From Pseudomonas phage vB_PaePA10145phi1_MKR2: a stretch of DNA of 64,000 nt. The notes beneath the pieces were generated by a model. It was not told the origin of the DNA. It worked only from the letters and a program-made list of their open reading frames with translations, and searched no databases. The stretch is taken from the sequence record PV565008.1; one strand, 5' to 3'. Positions 1 through 1,850 of this stretch are shown in pieces (position 1 is the first letter of the stretch; each line of letters begins with the position of its first letter). A program made the translations under genes and the position numbers.

Positions 1-1761
1 CTAGAGAACTATAACGAGAAGTCACAGCGTGATTTCCGTGTTGTAACTATTGGTTATAACCTAGCTGCTAGCCGTCAGGATGAATTCGCTGAGCGTATCT
101 ATCCGACCACCGTTATCAACCCGATTGAAGGTGGTGTTGTTCAGGTTCTTCCTTACATCGCTGTAATGAAAGACGTTTACCACGAAGTATCCGGCGTTAA
201 GATGGATAACGAAGAAGTGAACATGGTAGAAGCCTATCGTGATCCTTCCATCCTCGACGATGAAAGCATTGCGCTAATTCCTGCCCTAGATCCGGCTGGT
301 TCCAATGCTGACTTCTTCGTAGACCCGGCTCTTGTTCCTCCGTACACCATCAAGAACGAGCAGAACCTAACTATCACTACTGCTCCGCTAAAAGCGAACG
401 TACGTCTTGATCTAATGGGTAACTCCAATGCTAACCTACTCATCCAGCGTGGCATGCTTGAAGTTTCTGACACCATTGATCCGGCTGGTCGTCTAAAGAA
501 CCTATTCGTTCTACTCGGCGGTAAAGTTGTTAAGTTCAAGGTTGACCGTCTACCTCGCGCTGTGTTCCAGCCCGATCTAGTTGGTGATACCCGGAACGCT
601 GTTATCCGTTTCGATAGCGATGATCTAGTTGTTAGTGGCGATACCACTTTCATCGATGGTTCAGCTGACGGTGTTATCAATGATCTTAAGACCGCTAAAC
701 TAAGCCTACGTCTAAGCGTTGGTTTTGGTGGTACTATCAGCCTATCCAAAGGCGATTCTAAGTTTGGTGCTACCGACACTTACGTCGATAAAGTTCTAAA
801 CGAAGATGGTCAGGTAATGGATAATGCTGACCCGGCTGTTAAAGCTATTCTAGATCAGCTAACTGACCTAGCTGTTATCGGTTTCGAACTAGACACTCGC
901 TTCACCAACACTAACCGTCGTCAGCGTGGTCACCTACTACAGACCCGTGCACTACAGTTCCGTCATCCGATCCCGATGCACGCTCCTGTAACTCTACCGA
1001 TGGACACCATGACCGATGAAGGTCCGGGTGAGGTTGTTAAAGCTCTAACTGTTAACACCAACATCCGTAACAGCAACAACGCTGTTAAGCGCATGCTTAA
1101 CTACCTTGCTCAACTACGTGAAGTTGTACACAATGGTTACAACCGTCCGAAGTTTGGTATCATCGAAGGCGCACTATCCGCTGTAATGCGTCCGACCTAT
1201 CGTTACAAAGAACTAGATCTTGAGAAAGTCATCGACACCATCAAGTCTAAAGATCGTTGGGACGACGTTTGCGCTGCGATCCTAAACTGTGTTAAAGCTG
1301 AGCTATTCCCGGCTCACCGTGATTCCAACATTGAAGCTGCCTTCCGTGTTATCTCCGGTAACCAGGATGAAACTCCGATGTATCTCTTCTGCTCCGACAA
1401 AGAGATTGCTAACTATCTAATGACTAAAGGTGACGACCGTACTCTAGGTGCTTATCTCAAGTACGATATCGTTTCCACCAACAACCAGCTATTTGATGGT
1501 AAGCTAGTTGTAATTCCGACCCGCGCAGTACAACAAGAAAACGACATCCTCTCCTGGGGTCAGTTCTTCTACGTATCTACTGTTATCGCTGACCTACCGA
1601 TCACTCGTGGTGGTCACCAGGTTACTCGCGAAATCGCGGCCATTCCGTTCAACCTACACGTCAACAACATTCCGTTCGCGCTAGAGTTCAAGATCACTGG
1701 CTTCCAGAAAGTCATGGGTGAAACTCAGTTCAACGGTAAGCTTGCTGATCTTAAGCCGTGA
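1..1761 (+). CDS. Highly expressed virion structural protein, 5'-partial; probably the major capsid protein (phiKZ gp120-like)
   Basis: The frame of the 166..1761 ORF stays open back to window position 1, so the gene starts upstream of the window. Codon usage is strongly biased: CTA for Leu, CGT for Arg, GGT for Gly, with T/C-ending codons throughout. GC is higher than in neighbouring genes. A strong UUCG-loop terminator follows. Position relative to the KZ144-type endolysin fits gp120. Confidence 0.5.
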   Translation, partial: LENYNEKSQRDFRVVTIGYNLAASRQDEFAERIYPTTVINPIEGGVVQVLPYIAVMKDVYHEVSGVKMDNEEVNMVEAYRDPSILDDESIALIPALDPAGSNADFFVDPALVPPYTIKNEQNLTITTAPLKANVRLDLMGNSNANLLIQRGMLEVSDTIDPAGRLKNLFVLLGGKVVKFKVDRLPRAVFQPDLVGDTRNAVIRFDSDDLVVSGDTTFIDGSADGVINDLKTAKLSLRLSVGFGGTISLSKGDSKFGATDTYVDKVLNEDGQVMDNADPAVKAILDQLTDLAVIGFELDTRFTNTNRRQRGHLLQTRALQFRHPIPMHAPVTLPMDTMTDEGPGEVVKALTVNTNIRNSNNAVKRMLNYLAQLREVVHNGYNRPKFGIIEGALSAVMRPTYRYKELDLEKVIDTIKSKDRWDDVCAAILNCVKAELFPAHRDSNIEAAFRVISGNQDETPMYLFCSDKEIANYLMTKGDDRTLGAYLKYDIVSTNNQLFDGKLVVIPTRAVQQENDILSWGQFFYVSTVIADLPITRGGHQVTREIAAIPFNLHVNNIPFALEFKITGFQKVMGETQFNGKLADLKP

Positions 1762-1776
1762 GCTGGAAAGGGTTAC

Positions 1777-1806
1777 CGTTATCTAGAAAATGGGACTATC
1801 CGTTAT
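1777..1806 (+). repeat. RYLENG element, copy A, 15 nt after the TGA stop of the capsid candidate and in frame with it
   Basis: CGTTATCTAGAAAATGG-GACT-ATCCGTTAT. The 25 codons between the TGA (1759..1761) and the next in-frame stop (TAG at 1837..1839) translate to AGKGYRYLENGTIRYLEDGNARKLE. Confidence 0.7.
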
Positions 1807-1850
1807 TTGGAAGACGGTAATGCCCGGAAGTTAGAATAGTAACAGACATA

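Follow-up and report, generated by a model that had tools for sequence, protein, structure and literature searches.

In the phage Q-beta, the UGA codon that ends the coat gene is leaky: host tRNA-Trp decodes it as a near-cognate codon, and translation of the in-frame extension behind it gives rise to A1, a minor isoform made at a fixed low ratio. In double-stranded DNA (dsDNA) phages, capsid extensions are known that depend on frameshifting, as in gp10B of T7 and T3 (−1) and Cps of the Listeria phage PSA (+1), and Ig-like additions to structural proteins are known as well; the appending of Ig-like domains to capsid and tail proteins by recoding is a known phage habit, and such domains sit on the outside of the particle. 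In luteovirids, the coat protein-readthrough domain fusion (CP-RTD) is described as a minor coat-protein readthrough form that is exposed on the particle and serves interactions outside the cell. The locus considered here is the 3′-terminal part of the gene for the major capsid protein (gp120 in phiKZ) of Pseudomonas phage vB_PaePA10145phi1_MKR2, as found in a stretch of 64,000 nucleotides (nt) of sequence record PV565008.1 that will be called the window. Its TGA stop codon is followed, in the same frame, by 25 open codons encoding a short linker and a three-repeat peptide tag, and the same tag forms the C-terminus of a second protein in the window, gp143. We consider it likely that UGA readthrough in phiKZ-like phages yields a minor capsid isoform carrying this tag. 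No report of gp120 readthrough, or of capsid readthrough in any dsDNA phage, was found among the searchable papers on structure, proteomics, transposon sequencing (TnSeq) or recoding.

Conservation of the reading frame behind the capsid stop codon

The source of the window is a phiKZ-type phage: over the first 4 kb the sequence is 99.9% identical to Pseudomonas phage fnug and ~99.5% identical to phiKZ, and, by the gene numbering of phiKZ, the window starts within gene 120, which encodes the major head protein, and extends past genes 143 and 144. The gp120 gene itself shares 99.5–99.9% DNA identity with its counterparts in phiKZ and fnug, both annotated as major head protein; its product belongs to the Pfam family PhiKZ_MCP (PF25620; E 5e-189, 630 bits against a cut-off of 27), and the part encoded in the window corresponds to residues 217–747 of the gp120 chain in PDB entry 8y6v, the full protein being 747 residues long in phiKZ. 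The initial annotation had opened the capsid open reading frame (ORF) at position 166, which is only an internal methionine; the real gene runs from before position 1 to position 1761.

Ten named phages from several genera (phiKZ, Phabio, PS119XW, 201phi2-1, PhiPA3, PA1C, RVTF4, Psa21, D6 and Noxifer) all end the capsid gene with TGA, and in each of them the same frame stays open for a further 25–30 codons while the other two frames contain stops. The layout of the extension is also shared: a short Gly- or Pro-rich linker is followed by the repeats, which end just before the terminator. Among relatives in IMG/VR, 21 of 23 have TGA and an in-frame repeat extension, and the remaining two have TAA with the terminator directly after it. 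The tag consensus, R-x-x-E-[DN]-G-x-x-R-x-x-E-x-G-x-x-R-x-L-E, is kept in 34 capsid loci from several genera, in extensions of 24–30 codons.

The same peptide is written in many ways. In the 24 unique extension sequences that were used for the codon and start analyses, the invariant Arg of the first repeat is encoded by CGT, CGA, CGC, CGG or AGG, both invariant Gly residues draw on all four of their codons, and Glu is GAA or GAG. Entropy is higher at third codon positions (1.35) than at the other two (1.02 and 0.98), synonymous divergence among the extensions is high (pS 0.64), and insertions and deletions are of whole codons, in multiples of three. The +1 and +2 frames contain stops in 22 and 20 of the 24 sequences, respectively; none of them has an ATG, GTG or TTG in the interval from the stop to the first repeat; and the linker varies in length from 4 to 7 codons, yet the ORF is always in the capsid frame. 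Since conservation in frame is accompanied by synonymous turnover and by closure of the other frames, the downstream ORF is under protein-coding selection, and the extension bears the signature of a translated sequence under purifying selection. The initial annotation had proposed asking whether the post-stop frame and the amino acid motif are kept in relatives through synonymous change, and they are: the frame is open in every extension-bearing relative, and the invariant residues are spelled with several codons. It had left two options standing, UGA readthrough that adds a RYLENG tag to a fraction of the capsid protein and a conserved DNA or RNA site with coding capacity in one copy only; the comparison of genomes clearly favours the former.

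The extension is also coupled to the identity of the stop codon. Pooled over the phiKZ clade, whose loci are related by descent, TGA with an extension is found at 34 loci and TAA without one at 17, with a single exception (L117, discussed below). Beyond these 17, TAA without an extension is found at 19 more distant metagenome loci and in four of five distant named phages, the chimalliviruses Ea35-70, Xoo-sp14, RSF1 and SA002. Of the 38 capsid loci that a metagenome scan contributed overall, 4 have TGA and the extension and 34 have TAA and nothing behind it. Several pairs of close relatives differ in just this respect. The capsid C-terminus of L148, which has TAA, is 99% identical to that of L022, which has TGA and the extension, and a clean deletion of ~60 nt accounts for the loss; L162 and L163 (98% identical to L030) and L032 (93% identical to L030) display the same pattern of TAA and deletion. 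In this distribution, TGA is retained only while the extension exists, and the usual strong stop is adopted after its loss. For comparison, TGA ends 39 of 192 long ORFs in phiKZ (20%), most commonly in the context TGA-T, whereas the base that follows the capsid stop in the 24 unique sequences is A in 18, G in 5, C in 1 and U in none.

The exception is a distant relative, a 220-kb IMG/VR contig that also encodes a gp143 relative (IMGVR_UViG_3300037502_002993; L117, 11300–13915, − strand). Its 776-codon PhiKZ_MCP gene (E 8e-204) ends in TAA-C, and the same frame continues behind the TAA for 95 codons that make up a Big_2 Ig-like domain and, after it, RLTEDGEMRTTEDGTPRYSEL; a stop comes next, and then a terminator. 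The match to the Ig domain passes the Pfam cut-off (E 4.7e-7) and begins at residue 2, ahead of any codon that could serve as a start, which suggests translation through the TAA or an unusual start. By analogy with the Ig-like additions of other phages, this combination of Ig domain and tag points to surface display.

Three further observations concern stop codons followed by open frames, or the way in which this region is annotated. In Escherichia phage Goslar the stop of the major head protein gene is TGA-A, behind which the same frame stays open for 28 codons, TTVAASLDDILDDNVADGFIAPDIHPAP, up to the terminator (L042 1391–1480). The remaining frames are closed there, the sequence bears no relation to the tag, and the phage collection holds no close relatives of Goslar for a conservation test. 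In phiKZ itself, outside the window, gp91 ends in TGA-G with gp92 in the same frame 9 nt later (91112–92974; L035), and gp22 (TGA-A) and gp23 are likewise in frame (11002–11985; L034), arrangements that may be due to chance, which would produce each of them one time in three. Finally, the GenBank record of Pseudomonas phage HPP-Temi places a 47-residue ‘hypothetical protein’, apparently in another frame, over the capsid end and the extension region (L183 342–485), which shows how annotation pipelines stumble there.

Within the window, most of what the initial annotation had reported of this region could be reproduced (Table 1). The TGA, the 25 in-frame codons up to the TAG at 1837–1839 (AGKGYRYLENGTIRYLEDGNARKLE) and the 177-residue ORF ending in IRLLENGAARYLENGQIRYLES are all present as described, and the DNA at 1777–1806 is identical to that at 27429–27458 in 26 of 30 positions, as claimed. 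The R-x-x-E-x-G repeats of the capsid extension lie at 1777–1794, 1801–1818 and 1825–1836. Exact copies of the 12-mer CGTTATCTAGAA occur at 1777, 27429 and 27453, so the direct DNA repeat that had been ascribed to both copies is exact in gp143, but in the capsid extension the second repeat reads CGTTATTTGGAA, with 2 mismatches. Likewise, of the terminators said to follow both copies, that behind the capsid gene was found, but the same scan finds none behind gp143. The search for further motif copies that had been suggested returned 5 matches to CGTTATCTAGAA in the window with at most one mismatch, against 0.35 expected, a number reached in 0 of 100 shuffles. A six-frame scan of the 280-kb phiKZ genome for the tandem peptide motif R..E.G..R..E recovered the capsid extension and gp143 only, together with one partial match, RWVETGSLRGPD within gp146, that is taken to be chance. 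The window differs from the phiKZ reference at position 1837, where T instead of G turns GAG into TAG and shortens the extension from the 26 codons of phiKZ to 25; the tag can do without its final residue. In all relatives that were read, a hairpin comparable to the terminator-like one of the window, rich in G+C and with CTTTATG behind it, can be seen.

Table 1. Positions in the window of the capsid gene end, its extension and gp143
Feature	Position	Strand	Remarks
Major capsid protein gene, 3′ part (phiKZ gp120)	1..1758	+	Window begins within the gene
TGA stop of the capsid gene, proposed leaky stop	1759..1761	+	Context CCG TGA G
In-frame extension, 25 codons, AGKGYRYLENGTIRYLEDGNARKLE	1762..1836	+	Short Gly-rich linker and three R-x-x-E-x-G repeats
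Potential RNA hairpin in the extension, long, imperfect	1770..1825	+	Starts ~9 nt after the UGA
Double stop TAG TAA closing the extension	1837..1842	+	Read in the sequence
Intrinsic terminator-like hairpin and T-run, end of the capsid transcript	1850..1880 (hairpin with T-run found at 1850–1873)	+	Terminator scan
gp143, 177 residues	26937..27470	+	Annotated virion structural protein; DUF7941-type fold; phrog_2935, E 5e-46
gp143 C-terminal tag, RLLENGAARYLENGQIRYLES	27405..27467	+	Same three-repeat module as the capsid extension

Some 30 nt past the capsid terminator and upstream of gene 121 lies the 11-mer ATCTATATTAC (1904–1914), which 8 of 10 relatives from different genera keep almost intact in that place and which is probably a phage promoter; the window at large is not enriched in this 11-mer.

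Alternative explanations of the extension, among them a possible RNA structure

Four other explanations can be envisioned for the open frame behind the capsid stop, and even jointly they are unlikely, each of them failing on at least one tested point. The first is that the 25 codons encode a separate small peptide, made by reinitiation or from a non-canonical start after the UGA. Standalone proteins of 41–86 residues that consist of little more than the tag do exist in other phages, and a gene caller places a TTG start within the downstream ORF of L117. This reading is nonetheless quite improbable, because none of the 24 unique sequences offers a start codon ahead of the repeats, because a separate gene would have no need to stay in the capsid frame while its linker varies in length, and because the strict use of TGA, with TAA appearing when the extension is lost, would be unnecessary.

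The second explanation is the DNA or RNA site of the initial annotation, be it a tandem repeat bound by a protein, a signal for processing or a hairpin that stabilises the mRNA, for which coding capacity behind the stop would be incidental. Besides the 26 of 30 nt common to both phiKZ copies, it can draw on a stable hairpin that is possible from ~9 nt past the stop. The minimum free energy of positions 1745–1880 is −53.9 kcal/mol (z −5.0, terminator included), and the post-stop region folds comparably in most relatives, with the hairpin starting ~9–11 nt after the UGA. A helix drawn by hand exceeds column shuffles and slid controls in both pairing and covariation; however, the RNAalifold consensus has six pairs, all of them at invariant codon positions, at only −2 kcal/mol and with no compensatory change, and when the peptides are recoded at random with synonymous codons, the stability of the fold almost equals that of the natural sequences (mean z −0.6). 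The weak consensus and the recoding control led us to reject a conserved RNA structure as the reason for the conservation. The self-complementarity of the hairpin arises because of the repeat itself, in which the CGN codons of Arg pair with the GAC-GGN of Asp-Gly, and the hairpin is thus largely a by-product of the peptide repeat. At the level of DNA, the CGTTATCTAGAA motif is specific to phiKZ, and it is the peptide that is kept elsewhere. Since a nucleic-acid site would also leave the frame, the whole-codon indels and the exclusive use of TGA unexplained, we regard it as very improbable.

A third possibility is that the extension is a decaying and unexpressed remnant, left when a nonsense mutation cut off an ancestral, longer capsid C-terminus or a duplicated 3′ end of gp143. 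It is true that several lineages have lost the extension through deletion with no obvious harm, but dead sequence would gain stops and frameshifts, as the other two frames have, and here the frame is open and the residues are invariant even though synonymous sites are near saturation; nor would a premature stop remain TGA in 34 of 34 loci, and the idea is scarcely credible. That the UGA encodes selenocysteine, with the downstream hairpin as a bacterial selenocysteine insertion sequence (SECIS), can be all but dismissed: the distance of ~9–11 nt from the UGA is roughly the bacterial SECIS spacing, but the hairpin is a by-product of the repeat, its loop and register vary freely among relatives, the hosts differ, and an Rfam scan of positions 1600–2000 at E up to 10 returned only sub-threshold chance matches, with no family, SECIS included, near its threshold.

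The tag in gp143 and in other phage proteins

The second carrier of the tag in the window, gp143, is encoded between the holin gene (gp142) and the endolysin gene (gp144). In an alignment of 45 members of its family the last 21 residues, that is, the tag, are the most conserved part of the protein, and R157, E160, R165, E168 and R173 are invariant. Against the DUF7941 profile (PF25613) the window protein scores 18.3 bits, below the cut-off of 27, and many of its homologues carry a precomputed PF25613 match. An AlphaFold2 (AF2) model has a mean predicted local distance difference test (pLDDT) score of 89.9, with the globular body above 90 and the tail at block means of 74–84, the latter with beta bridges on either side of each Arg. 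A Foldseek search matched the model to chain 9xqd_0, from the phiKZ baseplate's outer peripheral region (E 6e-7, TM score 0.60/0.69); gp127, a DUF7941 protein, is part of the model published for that region, and gp143 is predicted to share its fold with a solved member of the family. A 2026 preprint on Goslar lists gp126, gp127 and gp143 as DUF7941 proteins and proposes that the family forms head-to-tail filaments anchored at the baseplate. In functional terms, gp143 is reported to shift the timing of the gp142 holin on co-expression and has been described as a holin-timing regulator (PMC12894885, 2026), and TnSeq found it to be non-essential.

Relatives of gp143 are found in the same clade of Pseudomonas jumbo phages and also in metagenomes, and they carry the tag even in phages whose capsid gene has lost the extension or never had it. 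The capsid tag is therefore the narrower feature, and it is probably derived. Within each genome the two tags differ; only in phiKZ itself is their DNA near-identical, which suggests a recent conversion or the use of the same codons by chance. Gene conversion or co-variation of the two tags genome by genome was considered as a general rule and rejected, the tags evolving separately. The idea that the tag serves in general for DUF7941 docking was rejected too: it is absent from gp126 and gp127, and it occurs in phages that have no DUF7941 proteins.

The reuse of the element in gp143 that the initial annotation had described is real in the sense that both proteins carry the same three-repeat peptide, but gp143 is only one instance of a much wider terminal peptide module. 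By BLAST in 50,697 phage genomes, the phiKZ version of the tag is confined to phiKZ-like phages, at two places per genome. A degenerate DNA pattern of the three repeats, run over IMG/VR, yielded 67 loci, relatives of gp143 among them, and on contigs of 4–60 kb the tag was found 0–4 residues from the stop codon of many unrelated proteins. The carriers include gpJ-like tail proteins of ~770–880 residues (phrog_1101, PF13550, Phage-tail_3), pectate-lyase beta-helix tailspikes and families of unknown function; in a few cases the tag stands instead at the N-terminus of long proteins rich in Ala, Gly, Ser and Thr. Among these 67 loci, L117 apart, no other tag lies convincingly behind a stop codon. 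When a profile built from 40-residue C-termini was run against 5.8 billion proteins, it brought in more than 100 metagenome proteins of 41–86 residues with the tag, some of them fragments and others genuine small genes.

Pfam has no match for the tag peptide or for the C-termini of its carriers, the sole PHROGs match is the gp143 family itself (E 0.17), a profile search of the PDB found no chain below E 0.3, and no mention of the tag strings was found in the literature. The tag is, on these grounds, an undescribed module that many unrelated phages carry on proteins of the tail, tailspike, fibre or capsid. As to its structure, the AF2 model of a 46-residue family that carries it (from an alignment of 100 sequences) sets short strands at the Arg residues of the second and third repeats with a pLDDT of ~77, and with moderate confidence the tag is predicted to be a small beta-hairpin or beta-meander in which strands centred on the three invariant Arg are joined by E-[DN]-G turns.

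Two groups of genes came to light along with the module. The 46-residue family just mentioned occurs on more than 30 metagenome contigs and combines a basic N-terminus, MKVKLKRRKRVKLPKSQTF..., with the three-repeat tag behind it (P0052, P0053, P0055, P0058, P0065 and P0079); one such gene (L140 6001–6141) lies in the tail module of a phage of ~43 kb, between a 118-residue gene that follows a DUF6712 gene and a 638-residue Big_5 gene. In two unrelated small phages, a gene of ~250 residues stands right after a tag-ended gpJ-like gene (L105 10719–11504; L126 10056–10805), and the two products have in common the N-terminus MA.K.I..L/M.AA....G.ELVEV.Q, which may resemble the N-termini of tail fibres.

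The proposed minor capsid isoform and its known counterparts

We propose that the capsid UGA is a programmed leaky stop at which most ribosomes would terminate and release the normal capsid protein. A minority would decode the UGA and continue for 25 codons before halting at the TAG-TAA just ahead of the terminator, the product being a minor capsid isoform whose C-terminus consists of a short Gly-rich linker and a tag of 20 residues. In phiKZ, ARAGORN detects seven ordinary tRNAs, none reading UGA and no suppressor among them, so that the decoding agent would be a host tRNA, most likely tRNA-Trp as in Q-beta. The hairpin behind the stop may aid the process.

The position of the tag in such an isoform can be deduced to some extent from the 3.5-Å structure of the phiKZ capsid, in which gp120 is modelled to its last residue (PMC11297242). 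The C-terminal arm, residues 728–747, takes part in a six-helix bundle around a ~9-Å pore at the centre of each hexamer, and in the pentons it is displaced outward and touches gp244, a protein of the outer surface (PMC11297242). Given that the arm lies at the capsomer centres, an extension would leave the capsid there, and the tag of a subunit that assembles into the head would probably be on the outside. The head has T=27 symmetry and ~1,600 subunits, so readthrough at a rate of a few per cent would amount to tens of tagged subunits per capsid. Readthrough would in this way set a low copy number for the tag on the head, where the tag might serve as a portable terminal module of the virion surface that joins accessory proteins bearing or binding the tag, or that adheres to a common ligand. 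We hold this role as a shared surface connector or adhesin much less firmly than readthrough itself. A still more specific version, which seems doubtful to us, would have the RxxEDG x3 tag act in phages generally as a connector peptide whose copies co-assemble or bind one common partner, with readthrough in phiKZ-like phages putting a small and controlled number of them at the hexamer centres, anchoring gp143 or other tagged fibres on the head and tying capsid assembly to the gp143-holin lysis timer.

Several points weigh against readthrough into a surface tag. The loci compared are phylogenetically related, and the raw counts of TGA with extension and TAA without it overstate their independence, the independent evidence amounting to three or so recent losses. 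The stop codon of L117 is TAA and does not fit simple UGA leakiness. The hairpin, as a candidate stimulatory signal, is largely explained by the peptide repeat. The dispensability of gp143 and the cytoplasmic role in lysis timing that has been assigned to it sit awkwardly with a tag that acts purely on the virion surface. Lastly, the available portions of the published phiKZ proteomics and of the 3.5-Å capsid structure make no mention of an extended protein; this silence is weak evidence, because searches restricted to annotated proteins and icosahedral averaging would both miss a tail of low occupancy.

If the proposal is correct, programmed readthrough would extend from the single-stranded RNA (ssRNA) phage Q-beta to large dsDNA phages; on the connector reading, this would be the first case of programmed stop-codon readthrough in the capsid gene of a dsDNA phage, and there would be a new and widespread assembly module as well. 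phiKZ is the reference nucleus-forming jumbo phage, with a capsid solved at 3.5 Å and a catalogued proteome, and an unannotated minor isoform would change its parts list. The hexamer centres would offer a defined and naturally tolerated display site that is useful for engineering phiKZ-type therapeutic phages, and knowledge of what the tag binds could account for the attachment of accessory fibres or adhesins to virions. It would also follow that annotation pipelines miss readthrough products of this kind systematically.

How far the proposed isoform resembles described systems depends on the aspect that is compared. With respect to the tag, the DUF7941 proteins (gp126, gp127 and gp143 of phiKZ; gp22 and gp23 of Goslar) are reported to form head-to-tail filaments by means of a flexible tail that docks on the next protomer, and gp143, the second carrier of the tag, has the fold of this family. 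The tag cannot be simply such a docking peptide, gp126 and gp127 being without it and phages without DUF7941 proteins having it. The foldon of T4 fibritin is a short C-terminal registration module of trimeric fibres, ~20–27 residues long and rich in beta-hairpin. The tag is comparable in its place at the extreme C-terminus of trimeric gpJ-like proteins and tailspikes; however, it has no similarity in sequence or profile to any PDB chain, and foldon-like trimerisation would make little sense for isolated readthrough subunits unless they were co-assembled with gp143.

With respect to the recoding event, the luteovirid CP-RTD differs in belonging to a eukaryotic RNA virus, in adding a large domain and in relying on defined distal RNA signals. 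The closest biology among dsDNA phages is that of T7/T3 gp10B, PSA Cps and the Ig-like additions, where recoding at the 3′ end of the gene produces a minor, C-terminally extended head subunit; L117 even has an Ig-like domain in such a place. The extension described here stands in the zero frame behind a stop codon, which would call for readthrough and not frameshifting. The closest mechanism is that of A1, in that a leaky UGA is proposed at the end of the major capsid gene with an in-frame extension behind it. Q-beta, however, is a small ssRNA phage whose extension of ~200 residues is required for infection, whereas the phage considered here is a nucleus-forming dsDNA phage of 280 kb, and the predicted extension measures 24–30 residues and has been lost in several lineages. 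What sets the present case apart from all of these is the proposed occurrence of readthrough in a large dsDNA phage, the addition of a very short tag where a domain would be usual, and the repeated use of this tag on different virion proteins.

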